A stretch of DNA of 64,000 nt from Gemmatimonas sp. (GCA_965279375.1 OZ257156.1:864001-928000), one strand, 5' to 3'. Shown: positions 39,965 through 61,028, counted from the stretch's first letter. Notes: generated by a model from the letters alone, not told the origin. Numbers and translations are program-made.

Positions 39965-39992
39965 GTGGGGCCGGTGCAGCGGGTGGCGTCTG

Positions 39993-41538: not shown

Positions 41539-41575
41539 CGCGCCTCTCGCCTCCGTCATAGAAGTCGTGCACGCC

Positions 41576-41667
41576 ACCTAACGCTGGCTTCTGCTGCGAG
41601 CGGAGCGCGTGATGCCGTGCGCCACGCTGTTGGTTGGTCCGCTCGTCAGCAGCAATCATCGTTCGAA
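41576..41667 (-). mobile_element. attC site A
   Basis: Plus strand acctaac..ctgctg.cgagcgga / tccgctcg-T-cagcag-C-aa..gttcgaa; two unpaired bases on one arm; R' = GTTAGGT on minus. Confidence 0.8.
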
Positions 41668-41731
41668 CCCGTGTAGGTGCTGGCGAATCGTGCGAACGGG
41701 CCGCCGCTGTTCAAGCTCCCTCAACTCTGCG

Positions 41732-43282: not shown

Positions 43283-43333
43283 CGCGATGGTGGTATGGGT
43301 TTGACGTGTGTAGCGCGTGAGTCGAGTGTGTTA

Positions 43334-46300
43334 TCAATCAAACGCGCGGAGGATCCCCTTGATGGCGGCGCGTCGTGTCGGCTTTTTGATTTTTCCAGCG
43401 CACTGTCGGCAGAGTTCCAGCGGCCCGGCGTCCCATCGAATGTCCTCCTCGTTGTTGTAATAGCCGGGACAGTTCTTGGGGCCGATGGAATGCGTCGACA
43501 CCTCGCTTAACGAAAAAGCGAGCGCATTCGCGAGGAAACGCTCAATCGTGTACGGTGCATGCATTTTTTCGAGTCGGCCGCCAGTAGAAACAATGGAGAT
43601 GCGTCCGTCGTCCGATACGCTCGCTGACAAACTCTCTTTGCCGTCGCTCCAAAGCGCCATTGTGGTAATGCAACACAGTTGCGCCACGCCGAGCCGCTCG
43701 AGCGTTGGTTTCAGCTTCGTTTCGACTTCTGCGGCGTCGAGCACCGCGTGCTGCGTATTCCTTTGCCGTGATCGACGCCACGTGCCCAATGGCGCGGTGA
43801 GGTTCGCGCGTTCAAACACAAACACCTCTTGTGCATCATTGAGCCGTTGAACTACCCTATTGAGTTCGGGAATGACGTAGTTGAGATCCCATATCGCAAT
43901 GGTTGGCTTGGTGGATCGCGTGAGCGATCGCCGTGCAGTCGTGGCTGGAGCGAGATCCGTCATGCGAGCGATTGCTGTCGCGGACGTATCAGCGTGCGGA
44001 ACCAACACGTCATCTGGGTTGCGCGCGAACAGCACCGGAACGGCCCAGTCGATAGCCTCGCCCGCAATTGAATAGTTGACAGCCACGCGAGCCTCACGCG
44101 CAGCATCGCCGATCGTGCGGCCAATACTCAATGCCCAATAGAAATGTTGCGCGAATGCGGTGGCCGAGACATCCAACACGCTAAACTGATTTGCGACAAT
44201 GGCGGGAACCCCACCGCTCACGAGCATTGGCGCGACGCCGCTTGAAAAATCGAACACGCGATTGGGGTGACGTCGACCAAATCCGGTGCCCGTTTCGCAC
44301 GCATTCAGAAAGACGAGGCGCACGCCGCGATGGGCCGCGATCTGCCGGAAAATGTCAGCGCGTAACTCGTGAGACCGCCCCGACCGATCTTCGAACAGCA
44401 AATATCCAAATCCGGTTGTCTCGTCAAACTCTCCGTGACCAATAAAGTGGAGCACATCAAAGCGATCACCAATGACGTCGGTGAGGCTCAACAGTTCATG
44501 CAGCTTTTGCGGTGTGACGTCGACTTCGACTTGTACTTCCGCAAGCCCCGCACGAATGAGCGGTTCAAACGCGCTCCGCACCATGGAAATCTCTTCATCG
44601 ATCGAAAGCGCACCTGCGCCCACGGGCTGTGCGGCAATGACGAGAATGCGAAGCTTGCCAGAACGCGCACCCAATGCATCAGCCGGCACGGCCGTGATGG
44701 AATTGCGAATGAAGTTCACTTCTTCCGTACAAATAAACGTTTCTTCGTACGGATCGAACGCAAATTCCCATGGTTTGTCCGCTACCCAACCGATGGTTGA
44801 AGTGAGGCACACATTGAGACGCCGCTCTTTCAATTCTGCACGCGCAGTGTCGTAGAGTCGCCGCACCTCTCCAGGGAAAATCGAATCGAACAGGAGCGCT
44901 CCGTACTTGCGAAGCTCTTCCTCCGAGGGAAGGGATTTGTACCTGGAATTTCCGTCGATGTATCCCTTGATTCGTTTATGCGTGTTGTCAATGAGTTGAT
45001 AGCGATCCCGCGCTTCGCCTCTCGTCGGCCGGAATGGTTCAATCACACGCGCATTGCGAAAGCTGGCAATGAGCAACGCGGTGTCGCCTTTGGTGCTGTT
45101 TGCAACCATCTGCGAGAGGCCGTAGTCGGAGTCGTTTTCTTTCGGCATCGCGAGCGCATTGAGCGGCGACACAATGAAGAGGTGCAGCACTTCGTCAAGA
45201 AATGATTGCCGGCTGGGACGCACCGTGGAGACTCTTGGCGGGTGATTACCGTCGGTCTCGGGTGGCAGAGTGGTGGATGGTGGATTGATAGGCGGTGTTG
45301 CAGCACCGCGCGCATCTGATGTCATCGCTCCATTGCCACGTCGACCGTCGCGCTTCGTTGGCAATTCCGCGTCGAGCTGCATCGTAGGAAGCCCTTGTGG
45401 CTGGCCGAGTACGGCGCGCGCCAGGAAATCGACTGTTTCCGTTTGATTGAAGAAGGTGGTGTGCGTCACATCGACAGGTCCGTTCGTTCGCAGATTGCCA
45501 CCGGGACCGTAGCATCCGACACGATCGTTTCCAACGATGGTCATGGTTGGCGTTCCTACTCTCCAACCGCCGCGGGTTGGAACGACGAGATCATTCGCCA
45601 TACCAAAAAATCCATCAACACCCACATCGACCATGCGTGCCACCACACCTTCGCTCGGCTCGTGATTCGACGCGAGTGCTGACCATGTTCCGGCGGGATG
45701 CGGCAATGATTGCAATTCGTCGATCAGTGGACCGCGCGGATTCATAGTTGCCAATCCGGGAATGACATCGCCAACTTTTCCGGCCAACCACGCGACCGAC
45801 TCGACGAGAAAATCCGCGCCCGTGGTAAATGGATTGTCAGGAAAGAGATCGATGACATTGCCGATCCAATCCGTGAAGAGGTGCCATCGATCTGGTGATG
45901 CTAGCGGGGTTCCTTCGTTGGGTCCGGCGACGAGTACGACATTGCCCACGCTAAAGCGTTTCGCGAGCGGGGCGAGTTCAGCGCTTTCGAGAATCGTGCG
46001 AAGCACCAATGCGCCGCGAGAATGCGTGATAACATCGAATTCCTGATTCGTTGTTGACAACGCCAACATTAGGTCGCGACCATTCGCCTCTGCAGTTTCG
46101 CTCACCGTAAAGTGATTGAACGCGTAAATGCGTTCGCCATACGTTGCTCGAACCTTGTCAAAGAACGTCTGCCCATCCGCTCCGCGGGTTTTTCCGAGTG
46201 CACCAAACCCTCCCTGAAAATTGGAGAAGGTGCCGTGAATGAACAGCAGCTTTCGTCCTTCTGGGAGCTTGCGCGAATTCTTGAGTTGTACGAGCGACAG

Positions 46301-46990
46301 CGTACCATCTGCGCCCACCTGCACCTGCTGAAAACCTCGCACTATTTTCTTCTTCTTCCAAGTACGTGTTTCCCAAAGCGACGCAAGTTTTTCGATCGCG
46401 AAGTCGGCAACTTTGTCGGCGGCTTTCTTCATGATCTTGACCACGACAAACTTGATGACTTTGCTGACGGGGCCGCGCCGTCCGGTTGCTGTCGCCGAAC
46501 TCTGGGTGGTAATGCGAAAGCGAAGTACGCCCTGTGGGCTCGACGAACGCTTTTTGTCGGTTGACTTTGCAGCTCTGCGCTTTCGTGCGCCGCGCATTCC
46601 TGTGCCGAGGATGTCACCGACCGCGAAACTCACGGCATCCGATGCATGACGTGCAATGACGACGTGCGTTTGGCGATCTGTCGGCTCGTATTCGAATGTG
46701 AGCGGTTGATCCTCCACGTTGCGCCGTGCTGGAAGCACCGCTTCGTGCGAGCTTACCATCTCGATTTCATTCGTGGCAAGCAGTGTCTTGACAAATGGGT
46801 CGATCCCGCTGTCGGCCCGTTGGCCTCGTCGCACTCGCCGTGCGCGTTCCGCGAGTGGTGCTGCGGAGATAAACCACGCACTGGTGCTCGTAATTGCACC
46901 TCTGCCCGAAGTACCTGATCTCTTCGTACTGGCGCGCTTGGTCGTTGATCGAGAGGCAACGGAGCGCTTGGGTCGGCGAGGCGAGGGCAT
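43334..46990 (-). CDS. Alpha/beta-hydrolase plus CHAT (caspase-like) protease multidomain protein
   Basis: FIHGTFS, THSRG, NDLVVP; CHAT LHFIGHG and FLNACE dyad intact. Confidence 0.85.
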   Translation of the reverse strand: MPSPRRPKRSVASRSTTKRASTKRSGTSGRGAITSTSAWFISAAPLAERARRVRRGQRADSGIDPFVKTLLATNEIEMVSSHEAVLPARRNVEDQPLTFEYEPTDRQTHVVIARHASDAVSFAVGDILGTGMRGARKRRAAKSTDKKRSSSPQGVLRFRITTQSSATATGRRGPVSKVIKFVVVKIMKKAADKVADFAIEKLASLWETRTWKKKKIVRGFQQVQVGADGTLSLVQLKNSRKLPEGRKLLFIHGTFSNFQGGFGALGKTRGADGQTFFDKVRATYGERIYAFNHFTVSETAEANGRDLMLALSTTNQEFDVITHSRGALVLRTILESAELAPLAKRFSVGNVVLVAGPNEGTPLASPDRWHLFTDWIGNVIDLFPDNPFTTGADFLVESVAWLAGKVGDVIPGLATMNPRGPLIDELQSLPHPAGTWSALASNHEPSEGVVARMVDVGVDGFFGMANDLVVPTRGGWRVGTPTMTIVGNDRVGCYGPGGNLRTNGPVDVTHTTFFNQTETVDFLARAVLGQPQGLPTMQLDAELPTKRDGRRGNGAMTSDARGAATPPINPPSTTLPPETDGNHPPRVSTVRPSRQSFLDEVLHLFIVSPLNALAMPKENDSDYGLSQMVANSTKGDTALLIASFRNARVIEPFRPTRGEARDRYQLIDNTHKRIKGYIDGNSRYKSLPSEEELRKYGALLFDSIFPGEVRRLYDTARAELKERRLNVCLTSTIGWVADKPWEFAFDPYEETFICTEEVNFIRNSITAVPADALGARSGKLRILVIAAQPVGAGALSIDEEISMVRSAFEPLIRAGLAEVQVEVDVTPQKLHELLSLTDVIGDRFDVLHFIGHGEFDETTGFGYLLFEDRSGRSHELRADIFRQIAAHRGVRLVFLNACETGTGFGRRHPNRVFDFSSGVAPMLVSGGVPAIVANQFSVLDVSATAFAQHFYWALSIGRTIGDAAREARVAVNYSIAGEAIDWAVPVLFARNPDDVLVPHADTSATAIARMTDLAPATTARRSLTRSTKPTIAIWDLNYVIPELNRVVQRLNDAQEVFVFERANLTAPLGTWRRSRQRNTQHAVLDAAEVETKLKPTLERLGVAQLCCITTMALWSDGKESLSASVSDDGRISIVSTGGRLEKMHAPYTIERFLANALAFSLSEVSTHSIGPKNCPGYYNNEEDIRWDAGPLELCRQCAGKIKKPTRRAAIKGILRAFD

Positions 46991-47315
46991 ATAGGGACCT
47001 CAGTGGGAAAGACCAAACATTTCGGGGGCAATTCGCGCAAGAACAGTGTTGCGATCTGTGAGTTCGCGCAATTCGGCAGCTGCCCAGTCGACGGCTTGCT
47101 TGAAGGATTCACTTCGCGCATTTCTCGCGACCTGATCAGGCAACGCCATTCGCGCGGTCGGTGACTGGCGGGCTGTTCAATACCGATCTGACGCCGTGGC
47201 ATCACCATCAATCGCAGTGGTCCGAGCGTCTCGCGCTGGCACGTTCCTTCCTCGGCGGCCTTCGGTGTTGAACGCGCCGTCTCCCTGCGACGCAGAAGAC
47301 CGGGTCCCATACACA

Positions 47316-47537
47316 GCGAACGTCGCGGAATCGTCCTTCGGCAGTTTGAAGAAGGAACGGGTAAAGAAGCACATCTATCGGAACGGCGAGCTCGCGACCG
47401 TGGAGATCGCAGACGATATCAACCGCTTCTTCAATTGCATACGGCGGCACGGTCACTTAGACGGGCTCAGTCCCGAGCGATTTGAAGCCGCTCACAAGTC
47501 CCGCTGCCGACGTGTCCACTAAGCGCTGGGAACTCCA
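47316..47537 (+). mobile_element. IS3-family remnant (transposase C-terminus and right inverted repeat)
   Basis: VAESSFGSLKKE..FFN..RRHGHLDGLSP..FE; end gtgtccactaagcgctgggaactcca-3'. Confidence 0.85.
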
Positions 47538-47676
47538 ATTCCTCCTCAATCATGACCCACGGCTCGCCGAGTGGACCCTCCTTCAGCGAGAAGCTAACGC
47601 CTCTGTGATAGGTATGTGCGCGATCTCCTGTTGTTCGATCATTGGGGCCAAGGCATTCTGGAAAGTCTGATACCAT
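47538..47676 (-). pseudogene. Probable cassette ORF truncated by the IS3 insertion
   Basis: Open frame just downstream of the attC-B core site (..FSLKEGPLGEPWVMIEEE) running into the IS end. Confidence 0.4.
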
Positions 47677-47714
47677 TCGAGAAACTCTAGCGTGGGTGGT
47701 ACCGTCTTAGGCCC

Positions 47715-47827
47715 ACCTAACGCTCGCGTTCTGTTGCAGCGCCCTTCAACAGGATGCGGCCAGCGAGCGCAGCGAGCAATAGGCCGCACTCCTTGAAAGC
47801 GCTCTCAACAGCAACGCAAGGTTAAGC
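47715..47827 (-). mobile_element. attC site B
   Basis: acctaac..gcgtt ctgttg..agcgc / gcgct..T-caacag-C-aacgc..gttaagc; long inner stem. Confidence 0.9.
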
Positions 47828-48068
47828 GGCGCTGGCGCGCACCCGCCCACCCCCGGATTGCGGGTTTCGCCCACTTACTCATCGGAGCGTCATTCCGGTG
47901 GTCACTGGACGGTGGTTCGAGGGCCTCGGCGCGCCCGATCCCCTGTTTTGCACTAGGCTCTTGAGTCGCATCCATATGTATACAGTTCGCGGCCTCCGTC
48001 CTCTAAGCCACCCTACTGCTTCTTCGTCGACCGGGTGCGATTCCGCTCTTTGGCCAGCCTCTAGCCGT

Positions 48069-50495
48069 TCAATCCAGTATGGGTGGGTAGGCAAGAGGGT
48101 CGGTGGAGGCCATCAGATCGTACACCGCCTGAAATACGCTCTCGGTGTTCGGCTTCGACATGTAGTCGCCGTCGCGGCCGTACGCAGGTCGATGCGCTGC
48201 CGCCGTGAGCGTTCGCGGGGCCGCATCCAGCCAGTGGAAGCCGCCTTGCCTTTCCAACACCTCTTGCATCATGTACGATGTCGCGCCGCCGGGCACGTCC
48301 TCGTCGAGGAAGAGGACACGGTTTGTTTTCTTCAACGACTCAACAATCGCGCAGTCGATATCGAACGGCAGCAACGACTGGACATCGATCACCTCTACGC
48401 TCACACCGGTGGTCGCAGCGAGAGAGTCCGCCGCCTCCAGGGCGACCTGACAGCACGCGCCGTACGTCACGACGGTCACGTCCTTCCCTTGCCGGATGAC
48501 CTCGACGCGGCCGATCGGCGTCTTCAGCTCACCGATGTTCAGCGGCATCCGCTCCTTCCGATAGTACCCGTTCAGGACCTCGACAACCACGGCCGGGTCC
48601 CCGGATTGGAGGAGGGAATTGTAGAACCCAGCCGCACGGGTCATGTCGCGTGGGACGAGCACGTACATTCCTCGCAAAAGGTGCACGATCGCCGCCATCG
48701 GTGAGCCCGAGTGCCAGACTCCGACGAGACGATGACCTCGTGTCCGCACGATGACTGGTGCTTTCTGTCCGCTCTTAGTGCGGTAGCGGAGCGACGCGAG
48801 ATCGTCGCTCAGGATCTGTAGCGCATAAGGCATGTAGTCGACGTACTGGATCTCTGCAATTGGACGAAGTCCACGCATCGCGAGGCCGATCGCCTGGCCA
48901 ATGATGGTGCACTCTCGGATACCGGTGTCCGCCACGCGACTCTCCCCGAAGCGAGCCTGCAGCCCCGCGAATCCTTTGTTGACGTCCCCGAGACGACCCA
49001 CGTCTTCGCCGAACGCGATGATACGTGGGTCGCGCGCGAGCGCGGCATCGAAACAGGCGTTCAGCACACGATGAGCATCAACGCCGCTCCCATCTCCGTA
49101 CACCGGTGCCACCGACTTCACACGCAATGCGGAGTCCGCGCCTTCCGCATAAAGGTGGGAGTCGTATTGCTCGCGGCTTGCCTCCCGCTGTTCCCTGACC
49201 CATCGCCGGAGCGGTTCGACAGCCGCAGTGTCGCATCCCCGGACAGCGACTAGGGCGCGGTGGGCCGTCGACGCAAGATCGCGACGCAGCGGCTCGGTGC
49301 AGGCAGCCACCGCGGCGCTTGCCGCGGCGAACTCTGCGTGGCCGTCGGGACATGCCGCACCAACCTCTTTCAACGCGGCAGTCAGCGACCGTGCCTCGGC
49401 CAGGATCGGAGCCTGGTAGTCATTCCATGCCTCGTCACGCTCCCGCCGCACGTACTCACGCTCCCCGCGCTCCAGCATCTCGAGGTCTTCCACCGACGCG
49501 AACCCGTCGGTGATGAGCCATGCGCGCATCCGCGCGAGGCAGTCATGCTCCTTCTCCCAGGTCAAGCGTTCAGTAGACTTGTAGCGCTCGTGGCTCCCAG
49601 TCGTCGAGTGACCGAGAGGTTGCGTTAGCTCGACCACATGCACGACTGCCGGCACGTGGTCCCGTCGCACCCCCGCGGCCGCGATGGCGAACGTGTCGAC
49701 AAGGGCCGGATAGTCCCAGCCGAGTACGGTCATAAGCTCGAGACCGCCTTTCCTGTTTGGCGTGCGACGGAATCCCTCTAGCAGCTCTGCGAGGTGCCCC
49801 TTTGTTAGCTGAAGCTCGTTCGGGACCGAGATGCCATAGCCGTCGTCCCAGACTGAGAGCAGCATGGGGACCTGCATGACGCCGGCGGCGTTGAGCGTCT
49901 CCCAGAACATCCCTTCGGCGCACGATGCATTTCCGATTGTACCGACGGCGATCTCGTCGCCGTCGCGCGAGAACCGCGTCATGGAGCGCAGCTCTGGCAA
50001 CGTCCGGTAGAGCTTGGATGCCTGTGCGAGCCCGAGAAGTCGAGGCATCTGTGCAGCCGTCGGCGAGATATCCGCGGAAGAATGGAAGTCATCAACAAGT
50101 GCCTTCCACTCGCCCGACTCGTCGAGCATGCGAGTGGCGAAATGAGCGTTCATGCTGCGACCCGCGGACGAGGGTTCGGCAACGACGTCGACGTGTCCGT
50201 ATAGTTGCGCAAAGAACTGACGGACGTCGAGCGCGCCGAGCGCGAGCATGAGCGTCTGGTCGCGGTAGTAGCCGGACCGGATGTCGCCAGGCCGCAGCGC
50301 GCGGGCCAAGGCTACTTGGGCGACTTCTTTTCCGTCTCCGAAAATCCCGAACATGGCACGTCCGGTTATGACCTCATCGCGGGCGACGAGGCTCAGCTGG
50401 CGGCTCCGGTAGGCGGTTCGGTAGTCCTCCAGCACGAGGGCCGGATCGAGTCCCTCCACCGCCCTCTGCTGGATAGTGCTCCCGACAAGTGTCAT
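48069..50495 (-). CDS. Fused alpha+beta E1 of a 2-oxoacid (probably branched-chain) dehydrogenase
   Basis: FGIFGDGKE, GYYRDQT, TPP-binding IGNAS..EG..WDDGYGIS, GEDVG, EIQYVDY, HSGSP. Confidence 0.9.
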   Translation of the reverse strand: MTLVGSTIQQRAVEGLDPALVLEDYRTAYRSRQLSLVARDEVITGRAMFGIFGDGKEVAQVALARALRPGDIRSGYYRDQTLMLALGALDVRQFFAQLYGHVDVVAEPSSAGRSMNAHFATRMLDESGEWKALVDDFHSSADISPTAAQMPRLLGLAQASKLYRTLPELRSMTRFSRDGDEIAVGTIGNASCAEGMFWETLNAAGVMQVPMLLSVWDDGYGISVPNELQLTKGHLAELLEGFRRTPNRKGGLELMTVLGWDYPALVDTFAIAAAGVRRDHVPAVVHVVELTQPLGHSTTGSHERYKSTERLTWEKEHDCLARMRAWLITDGFASVEDLEMLERGEREYVRRERDEAWNDYQAPILAEARSLTAALKEVGAACPDGHAEFAAASAAVAACTEPLRRDLASTAHRALVAVRGCDTAAVEPLRRWVREQREASREQYDSHLYAEGADSALRVKSVAPVYGDGSGVDAHRVLNACFDAALARDPRIIAFGEDVGRLGDVNKGFAGLQARFGESRVADTGIRECTIIGQAIGLAMRGLRPIAEIQYVDYMPYALQILSDDLASLRYRTKSGQKAPVIVRTRGHRLVGVWHSGSPMAAIVHLLRGMYVLVPRDMTRAAGFYNSLLQSGDPAVVVEVLNGYYRKERMPLNIGELKTPIGRVEVIRQGKDVTVVTYGACCQVALEAADSLAATTGVSVEVIDVQSLLPFDIDCAIVESLKKTNRVLFLDEDVPGGATSYMMQEVLERQGGFHWLDAAPRTLTAAAHRPAYGRDGDYMSKPNTESVFQAVYDLMASTDPLAYPPILD

Positions 50496-50512
50496 GATGG
50501 TCGTCCTTTTCG

Positions 50513-52978
50513 TTACGACACGATGTTCACAAGTACTGGCGAGACGTAGACCACGCGACGCGGTTCTCTTCCATTCAGGTGCCGCTGCACCACCTCGCTG
50601 GCTGCCGCCGCCGCTTTGGTCTCATCAGGCGCGAGACTCGCGTTGACGCGAATACGGTCTCGCACTCTTCCGTTGACCTGCACCACGAGGAGATGCGTCT
50701 CCGCTCGCACCGCGCTCTCGTCCACGGTAGGCCAGCGTTGGAGGTGCACCGAGTATGGCTTTCCCATTCGGCACCACAGTTCCTCGGCTATGTGCGGCAT
50801 GAGGGGTGCTAGCATGAGAACGAGCATGTCACACGCCTCGACCCATTCGTGCGTCCCCTCGAGTCCGTCGCGCTGAGCTTCGATGAGATCACTGGTGAAC
50901 TGCATGAGCGACGGCACGACGGTGTTGAATGCGAACCTGTCAAGGTCGTTGGTCACTGACAGTAGCGTACGATGCGCGCTGGCCTTGAGGGCGGTGCGAG
51001 CGGCCGCACTGGCCACCGGCTCCGTAGGATGCTCCCTGCGCGTCGCGAGCAACGCCCACACGCGCCGCACCCAGCGCGCGGAACCTTCAATGGCTTTTTC
51101 GTTCCATGGTCCCCCCTGGTCCCAGCGGGCGAACCATGCCAAGTACACGCGGACAACGTCTGCACCGTAGCGGTCGACGAGATCGTCCGGAGCGACCACG
51201 TTCCCCTTCGACTTCGACATCTTCGTCGCATCCGCGCCCAAGATCGGGCCTTGGTTGCGAAGCTGGAGCATCGGCTCGGGACCACTCGTGAGTCCGATGT
51301 CGCGAAGCGCCTTGTGGAAGAAGCGCGTGTAAATCAGGTGCATCGTCGCGTGTTCGACACCGCCAGTGTAGGTGTCGACCGGCATCCAGTAGGCGTACTC
51401 CTCCTTGGAGAACGGACCCGCATCGTCGTGCGGGCTCAGGTAGCGAAGGTGGTACCAGGATGAACAGACGAACGTGTCCATGGTGTCGGAATCCCGCTCC
51501 GCATCACCGCCGCAGCGCGAACACTGCGTCATCCGCCAAGTCGGGTGCAGTTTGAGAGGGCTTTCTCCAGTTGGGAGCCACTCCACGTCTTCGGGAAGGG
51601 TGACAGGCAGCTCACCGTCCGGAACCAGCACCGGACCGCACGACTGGCAGTGCACGACGGGAATGGGCGCTCCCCAGTACCGCTGCCGTGATACCAGCCA
51701 GTCACGGAGCCGATATTGTACAGTGCGGTGGCCGACGCCCTTGTTCTCGAGAAACTCGATGGTGCGACCGATTGCGTCGGCAGCCGAGGTTCCCGTGAGC
51801 GATCCCGAGTCCACCATGCGACCACGGCCGGTCCAGGGGAGCTTCGGACCCTTGGACGAGTCCGTGACATCGGTCGGCTGGAGCACCTGCCGGACCTTAA
51901 GTTCGTAGCGTGTCGCGAAGTCGAAATCCCGCTGGTCGTGCGCCGGCACACCCATTACCGCCCCAGTGCCGTACCTCGCGAGGACATAGTCGGCAACCCA
52001 GATCGGCACCCGGTCACCGGTCAACGGGTGGGTAGCAAAGGCGCCTGTATCGACGCCTGTCTTGACGCCGTCCGTCGATTCACGCTGAACGTCCGACTGG
52101 CGTAACGCGGCGGAAACATACGACATGACGGGATCGCGCTGGTCGACCTTCAGAAGCCGCGGAAGAAGCGGGTGCTCGGGGGCGATCGCGAGGAAGGTGA
52201 CGCCCCATAGTGTGTCCGGGCGCGTCGTGAACACTTCCAGCGATTCCCCGGCATCCGTCGCGAATCGAACGAGAGCTCCTTCGGACCGACCGATCCAGTT
52301 GGTCTGCGCAAGCTGCACGCGCTCGGGCCAATCCAAGCCTGAGAAGTCCAGCAGCTCTTCGGCGTATCGCGTCGTTCGAAAGAACCACTGCTCCAGTTCA
52401 CGCCGCGTCACGGGGGATTCGCAGCGTTCACAGATACGGTCGTCGGTGATAACCTGTTCGCGCGCTAGGGTCGTGTTGCACCCAGGACACCAGTCCACGG
52501 CGGCGCGCTTACGGTACGCAAGCCCGGCCTTGAAGAGCCAGACGAATAGTTGCTGTGTCCAGCGATAATACTCGGTGTCGGACGATACCATCTCGCGCCT
52601 CCAATCGAACATCGCGCCCATGCGCTGAAGCTGGCTGCGCATGCGATCGATGCTGGCGTAGGTCCACTGCGCCGGGTGCACGCCGTTCTTGATCGCGGCG
52701 TTTTCCGCCGGGAGCCCGAACGCATCGAAGCCCATCGGGAAGAGCACATTGAACCCCTGCATGCGCATGAACCTTGCCCGCATGTCGGACGGCACCATGG
52801 CATACCAGTGACCGATGTGGAGGGCGCCCGACGGATACGGCAGCATCGTGAGCGCAAAGTGCTTGGGACGCGTATGGTCGACGCGCGCACGATCGATGCC
52901 GTCCGCGGCCCAGCGCGCCTGCCAACGGGTCTCGACCTCTCCCGGCCGGTATTCTGATCTAATCTTCGCATCGACCAT
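50513..52978 (-). CDS. leuS: Leucine--tRNA ligase (probably an accessory copy)
   Basis: PYPSG.LHIGH, CP1 FTTRPDT and GTGAVMGVPAHDQRD, SRQRYWG, KMSKS. Confidence 0.97.
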   Translation of the reverse strand: MVDAKIRSEYRPGEVETRWQARWAADGIDRARVDHTRPKHFALTMLPYPSGALHIGHWYAMVPSDMRARFMRMQGFNVLFPMGFDAFGLPAENAAIKNGVHPAQWTYASIDRMRSQLQRMGAMFDWRREMVSSDTEYYRWTQQLFVWLFKAGLAYRKRAAVDWCPGCNTTLAREQVITDDRICERCESPVTRRELEQWFFRTTRYAEELLDFSGLDWPERVQLAQTNWIGRSEGALVRFATDAGESLEVFTTRPDTLWGVTFLAIAPEHPLLPRLLKVDQRDPVMSYVSAALRQSDVQRESTDGVKTGVDTGAFATHPLTGDRVPIWVADYVLARYGTGAVMGVPAHDQRDFDFATRYELKVRQVLQPTDVTDSSKGPKLPWTGRGRMVDSGSLTGTSAADAIGRTIEFLENKGVGHRTVQYRLRDWLVSRQRYWGAPIPVVHCQSCGPVLVPDGELPVTLPEDVEWLPTGESPLKLHPTWRMTQCSRCGGDAERDSDTMDTFVCSSWYHLRYLSPHDDAGPFSKEEYAYWMPVDTYTGGVEHATMHLIYTRFFHKALRDIGLTSGPEPMLQLRNQGPILGADATKMSKSKGNVVAPDDLVDRYGADVVRVYLAWFARWDQGGPWNEKAIEGSARWVRRVWALLATRREHPTEPVASAAARTALKASAHRTLLSVTNDLDRFAFNTVVPSLMQFTSDLIEAQRDGLEGTHEWVEACDMLVLMLAPLMPHIAEELWCRMGKPYSVHLQRWPTVDESAVRAETHLLVVQVNGRVRDRIRVNASLAPDETKAAAAASEVVQRHLNGREPRRVVYVSPVLVNIVS

Positions 52979-53029
52979 TGCGTTGTCCTCGTTTTTGCGT
53001 CGTGGCGCGCAGGATTCCCGTACGCCGAA

Positions 53030-54340
53030 TCAGGCGGCGAGCTGAGAGTCGTTGAGTGTGAGGCACTGGTAGGCCGCGTGGATCGTGGCCGCGTCCACGC
53101 CGCCCATGAGGCGTGCTTCGCGACAGAGACCACGAACGCACTCGCGGGCGATCGCTCGCGAATCGTCGTTGACGCGCTCTGCGTCCCACGTCGGTAGGAG
53201 CTCGTGCGACACCGCGACAACGCCGCCGCCGGAAACAATGGGATCGGGGATGAACACAATGCCAACGGCCGTGAACTCCTGAAGCAGCGCGTCGCCGCGA
53301 TGCTCGATCGAGCCGAGTTGGTCGTTGCCGGCGCCGAGGATCAGGCGAACGCGTGCGCCCGCGCGGCGAGCCGCGGCCAGGATCTCACCTCGGGTGCGCA
53401 GATCGCCGACGGGGCGCGTGCCTAGGAAATCGGTGCCTCCTCCGTTCGGGCTGACGACCTCGACCGTCGGATCTTCGAGCGCGGCAACCTCAGAGTCGAA
53501 GACGCTGCCACGCTCGACCAATCGGCGCAGCAGCGCCAGGTGGCGCTCTTCATCGACCTCGCCGCCGCGCGCCTTTGTGGCACGATAGAGACGATCCGCG
53601 GAATCGAGGGACGGATCGAGTTGCGGATCGAACACAACGACGTCGGCGCCAGCGCGATCGAGCAGGTACGCGAGAGGGAGACCAACCTTGCCGAGACCAA
53701 GAACGAGCACCCGAACCTCATCCAAGGATGTCTGGCCCTGCAGCTCCTCGATCGTCTCGAGCAGGCCCGCCTTCACGCCTTCCGCTGTCGCCTCACCAGT
53801 GTCACGTCCGCACTTGAGGCCGATCGTGTAATCGGTGAGGGAGTTCATCAGTTCCAGGTCCGCGTGACTCAGGCCCTGATCAAGCGAGCCAAGGTAGTCG
53901 CCAGCAATGAAGTTCAGGAGCGCCGCATGCGCGCGAAGGCGAGCCTCTCCCACGCCGGTGCCACCGGGGCCGAGTTTGTGCTCCGCAGGAACCCAGATCG
54001 TCCCCTTGCCTCCGGCCCACGAGTAGTGCCGCACGTCGGGTCCCAAGCGGCACGCCGCTCCATAGATGAGCGTCGTCTTGGCGTCCATGGCCCGCGCGAG
54101 CGCCCCAGCGGTGCGCAAGGCATGGGTGTGATCAGGGCACTGAACGATCCGGGTGCCACCAAGACCGACGCGGTTACCCCCCAACGCGGTCTTCGAGACG
54201 ACGACCGAGCTGTAGATCCGGGCGTCGGGGGCGACCGAAGACCCGTTGAAGGCTTCGAAAAGGACGTAGCCGCCATCGAATCGCGCGGGACCTCGAAGTG
54301 TGAGATCCCCCTGCTGAACTTCGCGGTAGTGCATCGACAT
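53030..54340 (-). CDS. Divergent Glu/Leu/Phe/Val dehydrogenase (leucine dehydrogenase-like)
   Basis: LGGTR, LARAMDAK, GGKG, ATAEGV, GLGKVG, GAGND, PD.IVSGGGV. Confidence 0.8.
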   Translation of the reverse strand: MSMHYREVQQGDLTLRGPARFDGGYVLFEAFNGSSVAPDARIYSSVVVSKTALGGNRVGLGGTRIVQCPDHTHALRTAGALARAMDAKTTLIYGAACRLGPDVRHYSWAGGKGTIWVPAEHKLGPGGTGVGEARLRAHAALLNFIAGDYLGSLDQGLSHADLELMNSLTDYTIGLKCGRDTGEATAEGVKAGLLETIEELQGQTSLDEVRVLVLGLGKVGLPLAYLLDRAGADVVVFDPQLDPSLDSADRLYRATKARGGEVDEERHLALLRRLVERGSVFDSEVAALEDPTVEVVSPNGGGTDFLGTRPVGDLRTRGEILAAARRAGARVRLILGAGNDQLGSIEHRGDALLQEFTAVGIVFIPDPIVSGGGVVAVSHELLPTWDAERVNDDSRAIARECVRGLCREARLMGGVDAATIHAAYQCLTLNDSQLAA

Positions 54341-54431
54341 GGCCTTTCTCTCGCACGAAAAGGGTGAGCCCGAGCAAAGGACGGACGGCAGGCCAGCCGC
54401 ATCTGCGCAGGCGGTCAATCTACTTACCGCG

Positions 54432-54460
54432 ATAATATATCATATTTATCTTCATTGCAA
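54432..54460 (-). promoter_or_regulatory. Sigma70-type promoter for the dehydrogenase-leuS-E1 operon
   Basis: TTGCAA-N17-TATTAT on the minus strand, in an AT-rich patch. Confidence 0.65.
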
Positions 54461-54529
54461 GAGTTTATATCGATTAAAATAGCCTAAGGTATCGAGTTGA
54501 GTGCGTTCCGCGGGGAGGCGTCGTTGGGT

Positions 54530-54559
54530 TTGACGGATTATCTATGGAGCTCGTAGTAT
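54530..54559 (+). promoter_or_regulatory. Sigma70-type promoter for the RSH-STAND / STAND-wHTH pair
   Basis: TTGACG-N18-TAGTAT; GGAGAG RBS before ATG 54605. Confidence 0.55.
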
Positions 54560-54604
54560 TCCTTCGGGGGATTCATAGACGGGCCGATAATCGTTGGAGA
54601 GAAC

Positions 54605-57600
54605 ATGATGAATACCGAGCCGAACGGAGATAGATTTCACACCCCGTTGATGCGTGGCGCCGGGACCGGTGCGGTCCTCGCCGTTCCGGCAAGCCGTGTG
54701 GAGTGGGATCACTGTCAACGCCTTGCGGCGATCCTTCACCAGCGGTTCGACGATCCCGTGCTCACCGAAGCGGGGTTGCTGCACGGCATAGGTGCCCACG
54801 CAGTTGAACGACTCGGCGCGAGCGGAAGGCCAGAGGTCGTCGCGATTCTCGAGGATGTCGAAAAGCTTCGCGCGCTTGAGTTCCGTGACGAGGATCTGAC
54901 GGGAAGTGCTCTTCGAAACGTCTTGCCGCTTCTACGGGATCCGCGGTCCGGCGTGCTGCTGGCGTTCGACCAACTGGACCACGTCGACCCCGATCAATCC
55001 TTTAGACGATGGAGCGCAAAGTTCCACCGTCTTCCCGAGATCGGCGTGGACGCGCTTCCGAGAGAGACCGCGCATCTCGACCCGTTAGTGGAACTCGGGT
55101 CCTATCCACGATTTCTTCGCCGCGTGGTGGCTCCGGTCGCCGCACTCAGTGGATTTTGGCGCGAGCGAAATGCTCTGGATGACTGCGCAACCCTGATTTG
55201 GGACCCCGATCGTGCTAAGGACATCTCCATCGAGGTGAGGCGAGCATCGGGGGCGTGTCGACGCTTGGTTGGGGAAATTGAGGCTTCCTTTGGCGATGGA
55301 GCCGACGCTTCGGTGCTTTGGGAGTGGCGGCACCTCGGTCGGCTGGATCGAGAACTTCCGCGGTCGAACGATCAACTTGCCAGCGCTTTCGATGCACGCA
55401 TCGGAACCCTCGGCTTCGTCACGGTCGTGTGCGTGGACGAGGACGAGTGCTACCGGCTTCTAGGCCGCATTCATCGTCACTTCGAGGGGAGGGGGGAGGC
55501 GTTCCGGGACTATATCGGCAACAAGAAGGGCGACGACTACCGTGCGCTCCACACGCGCGTGGGTCGCCAAGGAGCGGGACGCGGTCCGCGAGAGATCTCC
55601 ATCCGCTTGATTTCCCGAAGTGATGACTTGAAACGAAGCCAGCCGGCTCGACGGTGGCATGATCTGCGCCCGACGAATCCCGCCGGTCCGATGCGCGTGT
55701 TCACCCTCCACGGCGACCCGGTCGATCTTCAGCCGGGTGCTACTGTGGCTGCGTTCGCGGTCGAGGTACACGACGCTCTGCTATTCTACGCGATCGGCGC
55801 CCGGGTCAACCGTCGAACGGTCGAGCTAAACTACAAGTTGTCGCCCGGCGACGTCGTTGAAGTGCTAAAGAGCGAGCGGCTGCAGCCGCTTCCGTCTACT
55901 TGGAAGACTTGGATCCCCGAGATTCTGCCGCAGTCGACGACTTCGTTAAGGGAGTCGACGCCGAACCCAACGCATCGAAGAGTGCGAAAGGCGTATAAAC
56001 GCTTGTTCGAGAGCGAACTCGGCCGGCAGGGATACGCTGAGCTGGAACGACATCTCATACGAGAAGGAATCCGTCGGGTTCCCAGCATGGACGAGATCGG
56101 CCGATTCATTCTTGCGGCAGTGAACTCTTTGTCGGGAGCGCCCCGCAGCGCATGGCTGGACGCGGATTGGTGGTTGCAGCAGATCGGGGCGCTGGTCTAC
56201 AACTCAAAAGACTTCGACCCACTCTTCGAAGTTCAACTCACGAAGGATTTCCAAGGTCTTCTCTTCGAGAAAGTTCGAGACTTGGTCGCCGCCAGCCAGC
56301 TCTGTGAGGAGCTCGGTATCGATCCGCGGACGGCTGGTACTTTCTCTCTGGTACGATGCTCGGCCTGCCATCCTACGACGAGCGACCAAATCCTCGTCGA
56401 ACGGACATACTCGCTACTCACGCTGCACAGGGCCGGTGCTGACTGCGCCAAGGACGCTAGGCCGGTCGACGCCATTGGTCCCTTCGAAGATCAGTTCCTC
56501 TGGATTGAAGGACCGAATAGAGTGGGGTTTGCGGCGACTGTCGCCGAAACATTTTCGAAACACGGTATCGACATCGAGGAGATCATCGCACGAGCGATAA
56601 ATCAGCAGCGAGCTGCCGTCAGGGTGCAGCTGGCGCCTCTGCCGGCTACTCGACTGAAGCAGGTCCTCGAAACATTGCGATCGAACCATGGACTGAAGGT
56701 GACCGACCCGGACGCCGGCCAAGCGACCAGTGAAGAGCGAAATCACTTTCCTCCACGGTCAATGCGCTCGGCCACCCCGCTGACAGATTTCGTTGACTCG
56801 CCATACCGCGTCGGTGACGCACTCTATCAGGACGCGGATTTCTACGGTCAGCAAAGCTCTCTGACGAAACTAAGGACCATCTTTGAAGGCCTGTTGGCGA
56901 ACCCACGTGGTCACGGCCGTCGTTGCTCGATACTGGGGCCGATTAAGGTGGGGAAGACATCGCTGGCGCTCGCGTTCCTCCGCAGGATGTCGAAGGACCA
57001 CGATAGGGTGACGACGATTTATGAGCGGGCGACCCAAACAATGACGTGGCAGGAGATGGAGGCGAATCTTCGAGAGACGATCCTGAAAGAATCTGCCGAG
57101 GTTGCCGCACGCAACAATCGTTCTTTCGACCTTCCACCCGACATCGCACGCAACACGAACATGTACACGGTCGTCAATTCTGTGCGCGAACGTACCGGCG
57201 GTCCAATGATTATCGTGATCGACGAAGCACCGTGGCTGTTCAAAACCTCGCACGAGGGCGGAGAGGCATCCCGACTCGCAGAGGTGGTAGCGCAGCTGCT
57301 TCGAGCCGGCGTGATGTTGATCTGCGTTGGCCCCAAAGTCGGATTCGAGCGTATCCCACCGCGCTTGAGGCCGATCCTTCGCGATGGGACCGATGTCTCC
57401 GTCGACAAGCTGACGCTTCTTGAGGTTCGGGACCTGCTCTTAGCGCGACAGAAGGGAGGTCGATACTCCATCCTGATCGAATCCGGCATTGCCGAAGCTG
57501 TCATGAAAGCAACAAGAGGGAATCCGTTCTGGACAGCCGCGCTCGCAGACAAAATGTGGGAGCTGAACCATGAACGGTACGACAAGACCGTTTTTGAGAA

Positions 57601-57946
57601 CGCGCAAGCTCGTCTGGCGCGTGACAAAATAAAGTTCTACGACCGCTGGGATGATGAGGATCAGTCTTGGCATCCAAATTCGACGATCAAAGGAATTGTC
57701 CGCAAGCTCCTGCAGGAGCTTGCGAAAGAGACTCCTCCCACGGACAAGATGGTTCGAATGCGTACCCAGACTGCTCTCCGCCGTCTGGCGGATGATTCAA
57801 TTCCCTCCGCTGACGAGCTACTCAAAGAACTCGAAGATCTTGGAACCATAGAGCTAAACGCTGAGAGCGCCGGCAAGGATCAGATGTGGTCGCTCGCGGC
57901 ACCAATTTTGGCGCTTCATCTTCGAGAGCATCTTCACAATGCGTGA
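54605..57946 (+). CDS. Degenerate long RelA/SpoT homologue (HD*-SYNTH*-TGS-ZFD-ACT) fused to a STAND-like P-loop ATPase
   Basis: AGLLHG; ECYRLLGRIH..FRDYIG..YRALHT..EISIR; TGS RVFT..GAT..FA..VH..GARVN..L..GDVVEV; RCSACHP..HR; ACT GPNRVG; GPIKVGKTS, IVIDE, GNP. Confidence 0.85.
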   Translation: MMNTEPNGDRFHTPLMRGAGTGAVLAVPASRVEWDHCQRLAAILHQRFDDPVLTEAGLLHGIGAHAVERLGASGRPEVVAILEDVEKLRALEFRDEDLTGSALRNVLPLLRDPRSGVLLAFDQLDHVDPDQSFRRWSAKFHRLPEIGVDALPRETAHLDPLVELGSYPRFLRRVVAPVAALSGFWRERNALDDCATLIWDPDRAKDISIEVRRASGACRRLVGEIEASFGDGADASVLWEWRHLGRLDRELPRSNDQLASAFDARIGTLGFVTVVCVDEDECYRLLGRIHRHFEGRGEAFRDYIGNKKGDDYRALHTRVGRQGAGRGPREISIRLISRSDDLKRSQPARRWHDLRPTNPAGPMRVFTLHGDPVDLQPGATVAAFAVEVHDALLFYAIGARVNRRTVELNYKLSPGDVVEVLKSERLQPLPSTWKTWIPEILPQSTTSLRESTPNPTHRRVRKAYKRLFESELGRQGYAELERHLIREGIRRVPSMDEIGRFILAAVNSLSGAPRSAWLDADWWLQQIGALVYNSKDFDPLFEVQLTKDFQGLLFEKVRDLVAASQLCEELGIDPRTAGTFSLVRCSACHPTTSDQILVERTYSLLTLHRAGADCAKDARPVDAIGPFEDQFLWIEGPNRVGFAATVAETFSKHGIDIEEIIARAINQQRAAVRVQLAPLPATRLKQVLETLRSNHGLKVTDPDAGQATSEERNHFPPRSMRSATPLTDFVDSPYRVGDALYQDADFYGQQSSLTKLRTIFEGLLANPRGHGRRCSILGPIKVGKTSLALAFLRRMSKDHDRVTTIYERATQTMTWQEMEANLRETILKESAEVAARNNRSFDLPPDIARNTNMYTVVNSVRERTGGPMIIVIDEAPWLFKTSHEGGEASRLAEVVAQLLRAGVMLICVGPKVGFERIPPRLRPILRDGTDVSVDKLTLLEVRDLLLARQKGGRYSILIESGIAEAVMKATRGNPFWTAALADKMWELNHERYDKTVFENAQARLARDKIKFYDRWDDEDQSWHPNSTIKGIVRKLLQELAKETPPTDKMVRMRTQTALRRLADDSIPSADELLKELEDLGTIELNAESAGKDQMWSLAAPILALHLREHLHNA

Positions 57947-59306
57947 TCCGACGCAGATGGGTGGCGGAGCCCCTGCAAATTCTCCGCCAGCTGAGTTCAA
58001 CGGTAACCCGTTCTTCTTCGACGAGCTGATAACGCCGTTGAGCCGGACACTGAAAGAACAAGGCCGATACCTCCGCGGATTTAGGGGGGCAGGAAAAACT
58101 CACATCCTGCGAGCGTTCTCGGTGATCGCCGAATCGATGCTTCTGATGAACCGAAGCCTGAGGGATCGGCCAATCATCTCACCGCTCGATCGGTCGGCGG
58201 AAGAAATCGACATCGTGCTGCGTGACATCGCGCGATCGAAAGGATCGAAGGGAGTTGTCCTCATCGACGACCTAGATCTTCTGCTAGAGCACTCGCAAAA
58301 AGATGGCTTGGACCGCTGGGACTCGCTTTCCGACTCACTGGAGCGGATTTTCACCAGACTTGAGAATGTGCACATTCTCTTCACGACCACCCGCAATCCA
58401 GTTGACATCGGAACGCGGAATCAGATGCTCTCCAACTTCTTGCAAAATGCTCGGGAGCAGCCGCTTGAGCCTTGGAAAACCGCAGAAGAGTGGCACCGAA
58501 AAGTGCGGGATATTCTGGGAGCAAGTCTCGGAGGGGACGCGTGCAGCACTGACGTCGTGGCGAAAGGCATAGTCATACTGAGCGGAGGTCATCCGACCCT
58601 CATCGGTGCCGCCGTGCGGCGGATTCGGAAAACGATGTCGCAGTCGAGCGGATGGATCCCCCCGACCAGGCTTGCGCCCGTGCTCAAGGAGATCCCGCGC
58701 CTTCTCACCGACGACGGCCTCCCGTCTATTAGACGTCGCATCTTAGCGCTGGCCCCAGACCAGCGTAGGGCGCTGGCAGATCTGGCAGGGCATAGCGTAG
58801 GCTACCGTGCGCTCCTCGAGAGGCGAATCGGCGAGGAGCTCACAAATGCAGGGCTTGTACGCAGGCATGACGGCCATCGCGAAGGTCAGCGCGAGTATTC
58901 GATTCCGTCCCCGCTAATTCGGGAAGAGGCATCTGCCGAGCTTTCTTCCCGGGTGGACGATTTCGTTTTGCTTGACCCGTCGACAAGTAATCCAGACCAA
59001 GAAGGCGCGGTGGTCGCCGGTTCGGGATCGACGACTCGCATCGTCAGTCTAAGCGGTCGTTCATGGCAACTCGCGCGTGTGCTCTATGACAACGCGGGGA
59101 AACCGCTGGCGCCCGACGAACTAAATCGACTGCTCGGAGAATTGGTGACCGAAACAGGAAAGCCATTCGTCGTTCACGCCGCGCTCCAACGACTCAGGTC
59201 TTCATTGAAGAACGAGCTGCCGAATCTACTACAAACACATCGCGGCAGCGGATACCTGTTTGACGTACCGCAGCTGCGAGATTACTCCAGGCGACCCAGT
59301 GCTTGA
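57939..59306 (+). CDS. STAND-like ATPase with C-terminal OmpR-type winged-helix DNA-binding domain
   Basis: NPF, GFRGAGKT, LIDDLD, GGHP; C-terminal LS...QL..L..NAGK..EL..RLR..L..QTHRGSGY. Confidence 0.8.
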   Translation: MRDPTQMGGGAPANSPPAEFNGNPFFFDELITPLSRTLKEQGRYLRGFRGAGKTHILRAFSVIAESMLLMNRSLRDRPIISPLDRSAEEIDIVLRDIARSKGSKGVVLIDDLDLLLEHSQKDGLDRWDSLSDSLERIFTRLENVHILFTTTRNPVDIGTRNQMLSNFLQNAREQPLEPWKTAEEWHRKVRDILGASLGGDACSTDVVAKGIVILSGGHPTLIGAAVRRIRKTMSQSSGWIPPTRLAPVLKEIPRLLTDDGLPSIRRRILALAPDQRRALADLAGHSVGYRALLERRIGEELTNAGLVRRHDGHREGQREYSIPSPLIREEASAELSSRVDDFVLLDPSTSNPDQEGAVVAGSGSTTRIVSLSGRSWQLARVLYDNAGKPLAPDELNRLLGELVTETGKPFVVHAALQRLRSSLKNELPNLLQTHRGSGYLFDVPQLRDYSRRPSA

Positions 59307-59735
59307 CATAGCGCCGTGCACGAGACCCTTCAGAAAGTCTGCTGAGAACGAGGCCCAAATCATTGGTGGCGGGCGCTACACCGGTCGCTGCGGCGCGGTT
59401 GTGGTTTGTCGACCCTCGCCCCATCGAGCCTACCTTAGCAATTCCGCGCTCACTTTCTTGGCGGCGATTTTGGCCAGCTCGCTTGGAACGCGAGACTTCG
59501 AAACGCCTAACCGTCGCTGTTCGGCTCTGCCTGTGCCCTGCGACTAGACCCCGTGCGAGCGGGAATCCGGTACGAGTCCCGCTCGCCCGCGACGTGAAGG
59601 TGTTCTACTATCCTGGCGTTACAATAGAGGTGGTTTTGCGCTGCTGGGGGTGCGAGAGGACGACGGGCCGGTATTCGCGCACCGTAGGACGTCCCGAACG
59701 TGGGCTTCGCTATGTCTGTTACGGTGAATGGCGCC

Positions 59736-59845
59736 GCCTAACGATTGCGTTCGCTTGCAGGGCCCTTCCATAGGATGCCGACAGTGAGCACAGCGAACAG
59801 TCGGCAGTCCGTGAAGGCCCTGTCAAGCGCAACGCCGGGTTAGAC
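59736..59845 (-). mobile_element. attC site C
   Basis: gcctaac..gcgtt cgcttg caggg / ccctg-T-caagcg-C-aacgc..gttagac; lies 20 nt after the serine hydrolase stop. Confidence 0.92.
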
Positions 59846-59864
59846 CGCAGCAACGCTGACGGTG

Positions 59865-60989: not shown

Positions 60990-61028
60990 GCTCGCTCGGA
61001 CGTGCGCGCCGACGGAAAAGTTTGAAGA

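Follow-up and report, generated by a model that had tools for sequence, protein, structure and literature searches.

A divergent amino-acid dehydrogenase paired with a second leucyl-tRNA synthetase between attC sites in a Gemmatimonas genome

A 64,000-nucleotide (nt) stretch of a Gemmatimonas sp. genome (GCA_965279375.1, OZ257156.1:864001-928000; hereafter the window, with positions counted from its first letter) encodes a divergent amino-acid dehydrogenase, a second leucyl-tRNA synthetase (gene leuS, protein LeuRS) and a fused 2-oxoacid dehydrogenase E1, which face a two-gene sensor-like pair and are enclosed with it by two attC sites. The conserved core of this five-gene unit is the dehydrogenase plus leuS, a pairing that is real, conserved and apparently undescribed; in the open-access literature we found no description of it, nor of the RelA-STAND fusion that heads the sensor-like pair. 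We tentatively propose that the unit is a mobile module that cleans the amino-acid pool and thereby protects leucine charging from near-cognate amino acids, a reading that is plausible, if somewhat short of probable. It builds on the anatomy of the unit and its attC boundaries, on a dehydrogenase and LeuRS that are inherited together, the LeuRS being canonical and the dehydrogenase having a remodelled pocket, and on dead RelA/SpoT-homologue (RSH) sites in the sensor.

Organization of the operon

The three co-oriented genes are as follows (aa, amino acids):

53030..54340, minus strand: dehydrogenase, 436 aa; divergent member of the Glu/Leu/Phe/Val amino-acid dehydrogenase family, of an undescribed subfamily
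50513..52978, minus strand: leuS, 821 aa; second leucyl-tRNA synthetase, of Anaerolineae/Thermoanaerobaculia type, with CP1 editing domain
48069..50495, minus strand: fused E1 alpha-beta, 808 aa; 2-oxoacid (branched-chain type) dehydrogenase E1

An earlier note on the window had described a three-gene operon with short gaps and a ribosome-binding site (RBS) for each gene, and all of these elements were recovered: the open reading frames (ORFs) are separated by 51 nt (dehydrogenase–leuS) and 17 nt (leuS–E1), and purine-rich RBS-like words (AGAAAGG, GAGG and AAGGA, one per gene) lie upstream of the starts. A second ATG of the dehydrogenase, at 54334, is better spaced from AAAGG than the one at 54340. 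No terminator-like site was found between the three genes by a simple scan, whose sole minus-strand match falls inside the dehydrogenase ORF, and the gene spacing suggests that the dehydrogenase, leuS and E1 are co-transcribed.

Conservation of the dehydrogenase–leuS pair

Besides the window protein itself, a search with the dehydrogenase returned 58 relatives (35–47% identity) and one distant canonical enzyme, 60 proteins in all. Of these, 54 were aligned, leaving out five short or partial sequences and the canonical one. Twenty loci of the subfamily were collected, together with four of canonical enzymes; two of the 20 end at or inside the dehydrogenase. The leuS gene directly follows the dehydrogenase in 15 of the 18 readable loci, or 13 of 16 once two exact duplicates are removed. 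The dehydrogenase also occurs in five of 401 genomes from the class of locus L001 (labelled Thermoanaerobaculia), with leuS of this type downstream in all five; two of these were already counted and three are new (one with an 895-nt gap), bringing the total outside the window to 16 of 19 distinct loci in which leuS comes after the dehydrogenase. In addition, the dehydrogenase and LeuRS trees co-diverge across 15 pairs (Mantel r 0.93, 8 of 12 splits in common). The link between dehydrogenase and leuS to which the earlier note drew attention therefore extends well beyond the window, but the E1 does not share in it: no E1 follows leuS in any of the 11 loci outside the window that extend 1 kb or more beyond leuS, and we rejected it as a member of the conserved unit.

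Individual loci show further features. In one lineage (L035:6890-14164, L037:4270-14171 and L010:630-5960) the last 4 nt of leuS are shared with a D-amino-acid-oxidase-like gene, and upstream of the pair lie flavin amine oxidase and Rid-family genes; we count this as a single event. In L037 an amine oxidase is fused to Rid. The 895-nt gap in genome G630 (L034:8285-9179) holds about three tandem imperfect repeats of ~85 nt. Two tRNA-Glu(CTC) calls (L020:6450-6525 and 14432-14508) flank the dehydrogenase–leuS island of G536, a possible integration site. In L001 leuS is followed by a convergent B3/4 gene, a single occurrence that was treated as chance rather than as part of the unit.

Active site of the dehydrogenase

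The predicted structure of the dehydrogenase is confident (pLDDT 93, pTM 0.92), its insertions included, and matches the leucine dehydrogenase (LeuDH) of P. aeruginosa (7VID; Z 34.9, root-mean-square deviation 3.2, 338 residues aligned), which points to the two-domain LeuDH fold. With leucine dehydrogenase (6ACF, 7VID; PF00208/PF02812) it shares the fold, both lysines, D115, N261, L40/V291/V294 and an NAD-type Rossmann motif; in Pfam, the window enzyme had no match to PF02812. Enzymes of the window type differ in being only ~24% identical, ~70 residues longer and tied to leuS, and in the substitutions A113S, E114K/G/L, T134I, P146T, N262D and N287S (pocket positions numbered by 6ACF, the G. 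stearothermophilus LeuDH). We regard the dehydrogenase as the representative of an undescribed LeuDH-fold subfamily.

The distribution of these residues over the 53 relatives separates what is kept from what has changed. L40, M65, K68, K80, D115, N261, V291, V294 and the GxGxxG motif are each present in all 53, among them the residues that we take to serve catalysis and carboxylate binding; K68, K80, D115, N261 and GxGxxG also occur in the window copy. The earlier note had reported that both lysines are retained beside an altered pocket motif and insertions, and this was confirmed: K88 and K112 of the window enzyme correspond to K68 and K80 of LeuDH, and YLGSLDQG aligns with YITAEDVG. K80 and D115 are also named in PMC11200242 (partial text). 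In the pocket, A113S is found in 52 of 53 relatives, T134I in 50, and P146T and N287S in all 53, while position E114 is K in 40 and G in 11, and L in the window copy. The side-chain pocket of leucine dehydrogenase proper (EC 1.4.1.9), L40/A113/T134/V291/V294, is accordingly not matched at 113 and 134. Positions 113, 134 and 294 have been described as size gatekeepers: in an engineered enzyme, shrinking them to Gly or Ala makes room for longer chains (PMC11200242, partial text). The bulkier Ser113 and Ile134 would narrow the pocket, and may thus favour substrates slimmer than leucine.

The opposition that the earlier note saw between leucine breakdown and leucine charging arises because leucine was assumed to be the substrate, and a smaller cavity would remove it. 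Its suggestion of a non-standard substrate, such as a toxic leucine analogue, is plausible insofar as the pocket is remodelled across the whole family, but the accompanying LeuRS is not specialized for an analogue (see below). Within the family, the window dehydrogenase deviates most from the conserved columns (19 of 112). Decay of this copy was considered and rejected: P0002 likewise has SLDQG, KTT and VSGGGVV, which are therefore marks of a sub-lineage.

The second leucyl-tRNA synthetase

The window LeuRS scores 907.6 bits against TIGR00396 (leuS_bact; cut-off 548.4). Aligned to T. thermophilus LeuRS (1H3N), it has a canonical leucine pocket, HIGH, KMSKS and the CP1 editing motifs TTRPDT, GTG and HDQRD, whose residues we presume to have their usual functional roles. 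No LeuRS but this type was found in G388 (~5.9 Mb, of which a single contig covers 5.89 Mb), G528 or G630; in the Gemmatimonas host, G301 and G536 it is a second copy. Canonical motifs and sole-copy status in three genomes together indicate an ordinary charging enzyme and led us to reject specialization for an analogue or for biosynthesis; because the enzyme is the only LeuRS found in those genomes, its partner dehydrogenase must tolerate routine leucine charging.

The best matches of the window LeuRS are 60–65% identical, and those with a named source are from Anaerolineae/Chloroflexota, except for one from Thermoanaerobaculia. Of 401 genomes of the class, 20 carry this Anaerolineae-like type (among them G480, flagged as unpublished), in varied contexts (L060-L078), a pattern that suggests repeated displacement of the native enzyme. 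G301 has three LeuRS genes (L026-L028), the cassette type and two of native type, one of them partial; contamination of the bin is possible. Monophyly of the dehydrogenase-linked LeuRS was not supported in a FastTree phylogeny with a long outgroup, in which the linked copies mix with unlinked and Anaerolineae-labelled ones.

The window LeuRS deviates at 37 of 403 conserved columns, more than any other of 40 copies (median 6), and the deviations cluster near KMSKS and in the anticodon-binding helices. This is a lead towards altered binding of tRNA or inhibitor, or may simply reflect faster evolution.

The fused E1 and the host complement

The E1 has the Pfam domains E1_dh, Transket_pyr and Transketolase_C. 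The same E1 type is present, unlinked, in all five dehydrogenase-bearing class genomes (58–63% identical), and ORF listings inspected by eye showed no E2-like ORF within 1.5 kb of it in these five. The E1 is therefore a local addition to the operon, and its lack of E2 and E3 partners is ordinary. The earlier note was right that these are missing, as the unit contains neither an E2 nor an E3 gene; the absence is nevertheless unremarkable, given that in those five genomes, too, the type has no E2-like ORF nearby and that the host encodes three E2-like genes and two E3 genes above the family cut-off, all outside the unit. By the same token the unit is not a bkd operon (branched-chain 2-oxoacid dehydrogenase), which encodes E1, E2 and E3 together.

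The host genome is a single contig (C1) of 5.31 Mb, 99.95% complete. It carries a native leuS at C1:2383723 (42% identical to that of the window), a canonical leucine dehydrogenase beside acyl-CoA dehydrogenase-like genes, and four other E1 sets. The dehydrogenase was found in none of 300 genomes of the host's family and the fused E1 in none of 35 relatives, and on these sequence comparisons the dehydrogenase, leuS and E1 all look foreign to the host. A plasmid search gave no match to the dehydrogenase, and none of 43 pattern matches among viral contigs encodes a relative of it.

This background bears on whether the operon serves branched-chain catabolism, with the dehydrogenase and E1 burning surplus Leu, Val and Ile and the extra LeuRS keeping tRNA-Leu charged as a buffer. 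Such a role would suit a LeuDH-like fold with all catalytic residues and with L40, V291 and V294 kept, an E1 of branched-chain/pyruvate type, and ACT domains (one is present in the adjacent sensor, below), which can sense these amino acids. However, it would duplicate the LeuDH, E1 sets and leuS that the host already has, the pocket changes are fixed across the family, and it gives catabolic genes no obvious reason to adjoin leuS in 16 of 19 loci. Of the readings compared it lies nearest to that of the earlier note, minus the analogue; we consider it unlikely.

The putative RelA-like/STAND sensor pair

Divergently from the operon lie a promoter region and two overlapping genes; this gene pair and the two attC sites around the unit do not figure in the earlier note:

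54341..54604, no strand: divergent promoter region, 264 nt, AT-rich, between the dehydrogenase and the RelA-like gene
54605..57946, plus strand: RelA/SpoT-like-STAND protein, 1113 aa; HD-like, SYNTH-like, TGS, zinc finger and ACT domains, then a STAND ATPase; catalytically dead
57939..59306, plus strand: STAND-winged-helix protein, 455 aa, with an OmpR-type winged helix (Trans_reg_C); overlaps the preceding gene by 8 nt

In the promoter region, sigma-70-like sites stand back-to-back at 54460-54432 (minus) and 54530-54559 (plus); these are consensus matches only, three being found against 1.3 expected in the scanned region. Its core (54416-54500) has 31% GC, and no operator repeats were found between 54341 and 54604. 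Rfam gave no T-box or riboswitch match across 40000-64000. The window contains no tRNA dedicated to the unit, and the only tRNAs in 15 scanned loci were tRNA-Glu (L020) and tRNA-Asn/His (G432).

The 1113-aa protein matches TGS, RelA_SpoT, ACT and AAA_16 in Pfam. Long RSH enzymes (PMC6606846, partial text) have the same order of HD, SYNTH, TGS, helical, zinc-finger and ACT domains, and the two align over 625 columns (probability 99.9). The sensor nonetheless differs from them in having no catalytic acidic residues, in its STAND fusion and in its STAND-winged-helix partner, and is thus not an active RSH. A full scan yielded 117 representatives of the fast-evolving sensor family at E≤1e-30, 62 of which were aligned. 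At the positions that we take to be the catalytic HD aspartate and the synthetase Asp/Glu motifs of RSH enzymes, Asp occurs in only one of 62 sequences at the former, and D/E in at most seven of 62 at columns 267-269 and at most two of 62 at columns 330-333; the Walker A GKxS and Walker B DE motifs are invariant. The partner has Walker A GFRGAGKT and Walker B DD in all four copies seen, and is 23% identical to its counterpart in G432. In long RSH enzymes, TGS recognizes the CCA end of tRNA, and the ACT domain of some Rel enzymes is able to bind branched-chain amino acids (PMC6606846, partial text).

Searching 401 phylum and 401 class genomes gave three further loci with the STAND-fused sensor; seven weaker phylum matches cover the RSH part only and were taken as ordinary Rel, and a plasmid search with the sensor likewise returned ordinary RelA/SpoT matches only. 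In G432 (L052:1671-7155) the sensor pair is followed by a gene for a 1203-aa fusion of a dehydrogenase with a degenerate ValRS, by a HisRS gene in convergent orientation and by tRNA-His. In G898 the sensor has no N-terminal RSH part and faces a GntB-like hydroxylase/desaturase and a B3/4 domain, with an attC nearby, and in G548 the pair faces a clavaminate-synthase/VioC-like oxygenase. The NCBIfam matches behind these labels score below their cut-offs. An enzyme of an amino-acid-modifying type thus adjoins the sensor in all four loci, the window included, and a synthetase or editing domain in three of them; four loci are a small sample, with no control set.

The nearest described arrangement is the nSTAND2 two-gene operon (Kaur et al. 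2021, PMC8195603). Both consist of two adjacent genes that each have a STAND module (in four of four loci for the sensor), and nSTAND2 is mobile. In nSTAND2, however, the second gene has an eroded STAND joined to a GT4 or HEPN effector, whereas the second STAND of the window pair keeps Walker A and B and carries a winged helix, and the first gene of the window pair has a RelA-like sensor; 'RelA' has no occurrence in the PMC8195603 supplement file that lists nSTAND2 neighbourhoods. The nSTAND2 profile PF20702 had no Pfam match at E≤0.001 and was an Atlas neighbour at 0.78. The window pair lacks a defining feature of the nSTAND2 system, namely an inactive, effector-fused second STAND.

The fusion in G432 raises a structural alternative, in which the dehydrogenase docks on this LeuRS type through its insertions and acts as a physical partner or sensor, the unfused counterpart of the fusions between a dehydrogenase and a dead ValRS. 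The dehydrogenase rarely occurs without this LeuRS, its family-specific insertions are predicted to be well folded, and the ValRS-like fusion stands beside a sensor pair. We nevertheless find this idea quite improbable: the catalytic residues are all invariant, as in a working enzyme; the dehydrogenase of the G432-type fusion has a canonical AEDVG pocket and falls in a different clade; and three loci have the dehydrogenase without leuS.

Integron context

The unit lies in an insertion with the following landmarks (HMM, hidden Markov model):

47715..47827, minus strand: attC closing the unit; HMM E 5.5e-28, long hairpin z −3.6, 242 nt past the E1 stop
59736..59845, minus strand: attC opening the unit; HMM E 1.1e-26, hairpin z −5.7, 430 nt from the unit end
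40836-40954, minus strand: further attC; HMM E 5.4e-16
39965..61742, no strand: surrounding insertion, 21.7 kb; an attC cluster without integrase

The HMM was built from 48 attC sites of the host's own integron array, and its matches span 47716-47824, 59737-59844 and 40839-40952. It gave no match at E≤10 between 47827 and 59736; exactly five genes therefore lie between two successive attC sites. Candidates picked by eye at 41576, 59506 and 61036 had no HMM score and were not counted. In two congeners, G242 and G1026, the genes that flank the insertion are separated by 91 and 35 nt, respectively. An integron integrase above the TIGR02249 cut-off is encoded at C1:1246027, in a super-integron (G000:C1:1246027-1393500) with 122 attC matches of ~110–120 nt at a median spacing of 972 nt. 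Like integron cassettes and attC clusters without integrase (bioRxiv 10.1101/2024.07.02.601686, partial text), the unit lies between same-strand attC sites of the host's family and has its own promoter-like sites; unlike the cassettes of the host array, it measures 11.9 kb and holds five genes in two directions. The boundaries are observed, and the five genes may move as one 11.9-kb cassette. The assembly is supported, though not independently, by an 11,996-nt contig that spans 47768-59763 and occurs in each of the four runs of one sample. No attC × attC excision joint was listed among one sample's contigs, which drop rare forms. Further attC sites are scattered outside the array, at C1:109649, 316903, 318315 and 673929.

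A very improbable alternative is that the unit is a chance assembly, in which only the dehydrogenase and leuS belong together, the E1 and sensor pair have collected as passengers at a hot spot for insertions, and the attC sites do no more than flank an island. The five-gene set was seen once, GC content at third codon positions (GC3) is 0.75–0.76 in the operon compared to 0.63–0.65 in the sensor pair, the unit ends 242 and 430 nt from the attC sites, and a generic scan found no attC-like hairpins at the other dehydrogenase–leuS loci. Passengers would not, however, be expected to share a divergent promoter region or to include an E1 coupled at 17 nt, and all three of the other sensor loci adjoin amino-acid-modifying enzymes.

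The same context also brings to mind a defence or resistance cassette, whose sensor would detect a LeuRS inhibitor or phage-caused translation stress and induce a resistant LeuRS together with enzymes that destroy the inhibitor or drain amino acids. Cassettes of chromosomal integrons often encode defence (bioRxiv 10.1101/2024.07.02.601686, partial text), adjoining CHAT-protease and MBL-hydrolase genes have weak matches to defence models, and a two-STAND operon has been predicted to counter invaders (PMC8195603). Extra resistant synthetases are also known: AgnB2 resists through lowered affinity for tRNA and inhibitor (PMC7916415, partial text), and the deviations of the window LeuRS fall around KMSKS and the anticodon-binding helices. 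The self-resistance enzymes AgnB2 (a LeuRS, against agrocin 84) and IleRS2/MupA (PMC7916415, partial text) resemble the window LeuRS in being second, laterally acquired synthetases beside a native copy, but the window LeuRS has no toxin biosynthesis cluster and its type is the sole LeuRS of other genomes. Between the attC sites there are no inhibitor-biosynthesis genes, and the neighbours vary across loci; PADLOC returned no match for any of the five genes, and no dehydrogenase relative appeared among the viral-contig matches. A defence role is, on balance, distinctly unlikely.

Proposed function

In the pool-cleaning reading that we favour, the dehydrogenase would largely spare leucine and oxidatively deaminate slimmer near-cognate amino acids (norvaline, 2-aminobutyrate or an analogue from the environment). 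Its targets would be amino acids that LeuRS might otherwise mis-activate, or release after editing; in yeast, norvaline is the main threat handled by LeuRS editing (PMC5499588, partial text). The E1 would decarboxylate the resulting 2-oxo acid and pull the reversible deamination forward, with E2 and E3 supplied in trans by the host. The weakest steps concern control: the dead-RelA-STAND protein might use TGS or ACT to detect uncharged tRNA or a branched-chain amino acid and, with its STAND-winged-helix partner, might switch the operon on without ppGpp synthesis.

The closest functional analogy is the canavanine system of P. canavaninivorans and R. leguminosarum (PMC10018355, partial text), in which CtdA, a B3/4 trans-editing protein, precedes a canavanine-gamma-lyase operon. 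That system encodes translation quality control beside analogue-destroying enzymes, as is proposed for the unit in the window, and a B3/4 gene adjoins the sensor in G898. The unit differs in that a complete LeuRS that edits in cis is accompanied by an E1 and a dehydrogenase of LeuDH fold, and it would use a protein sensor rather than a riboswitch; the unit would work like the canavanine system but is no member of it.

Several observations weigh against the proposal. (i) The gatekeeper data were obtained on engineered amine dehydrogenases, with ketones as substrates, and concern enlargement of the pocket, the reverse of the change proposed here. (ii) LeuRS already edits norvaline, so that further clearance may be superfluous. 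(iii) The dehydrogenase is absent from 15 of the 20 class genomes with this LeuRS type, and LeuRS copies with and without it intermingle in the tree; LeuRS therefore does not need the dehydrogenase, and the dependence is one-way, of the dehydrogenase on this LeuRS type. (iv) Even the dehydrogenase occurs without leuS in three loci (L014, L018 and L019), and the congruence of the trees may partly stem from common host descent. (v) The sensor pair is in none of the five dehydrogenase-bearing class genomes, and the dehydrogenase in neither sensor-bearing class genome, so that the five-gene combination has been seen only once. (vi) Even the largest spacing in the host array (4121 nt) is about a third of the length of the unit, and long cassettes recombine poorly (bioRxiv 10.1101/2024.07.02.601686, partial text).

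A broader generalization concerns the sensor pair, which could be a widespread, undescribed and ppGpp-independent 'private stringent response' that reads uncharged tRNA or an analogue and induces an interchangeable neighbouring kit of modifying enzyme plus synthetase or editing domain (Leu here; Val/His, Arg-like and an oxygenase elsewhere). Such a kit might travel as a giant integron cassette and defend translation from antimetabolites or phage. We offer this as speculation with a low, though not negligible, chance of being right.

Should the pool-cleaning proposal prove true, it would describe a fidelity layer that acts before the synthetase, by removing near-cognates from the pool, and that is mobile. 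The dehydrogenase subfamily, with its apparently naturally narrowed pocket, is directly assayable and of interest for biocatalysis. The window also provides a first genomic clue to what the dead-RelA-STAND family (117 clusters at E≤1e-30) might regulate, and the 11.9-kb, five-gene unit, with a housekeeping synthetase enclosed by its attC sites, tests how large an integron cassette can be.

Other features of the insertion

Beyond the closing attC, minus-strand genes at 41732-46990 encode an MBL-fold hydrolase (516 aa) and then a DUF7379 and CHAT protease (1218 aa), both of low GC3; their weak defence-model matches (LmuA, SAVED_CHAT, Avs1a) make them a candidate two-gene defence system between attC sites. 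A short transposase-like remnant at 47196-47522 (plus strand), presumably of an IS3-type integrase core, lies between the CHAT gene and the attC. A GNAT acetyltransferase at 41086-41577 (minus strand; AAC(3)-I 87.6 bits, below the cut-off of 200) lies upstream of the 40836-40954 attC. The right end of the insertion holds a serine beta-lactamase-fold protein (59865-61064, minus strand), which ends 20 nt from the attC, and a DUF5990 protein (61184-61684, minus strand). A short 14-nt tandem repeat marks the left edge of the insertion (40001-40056), and a similar TTCGTCACCCGCTG word occurs near 61740.

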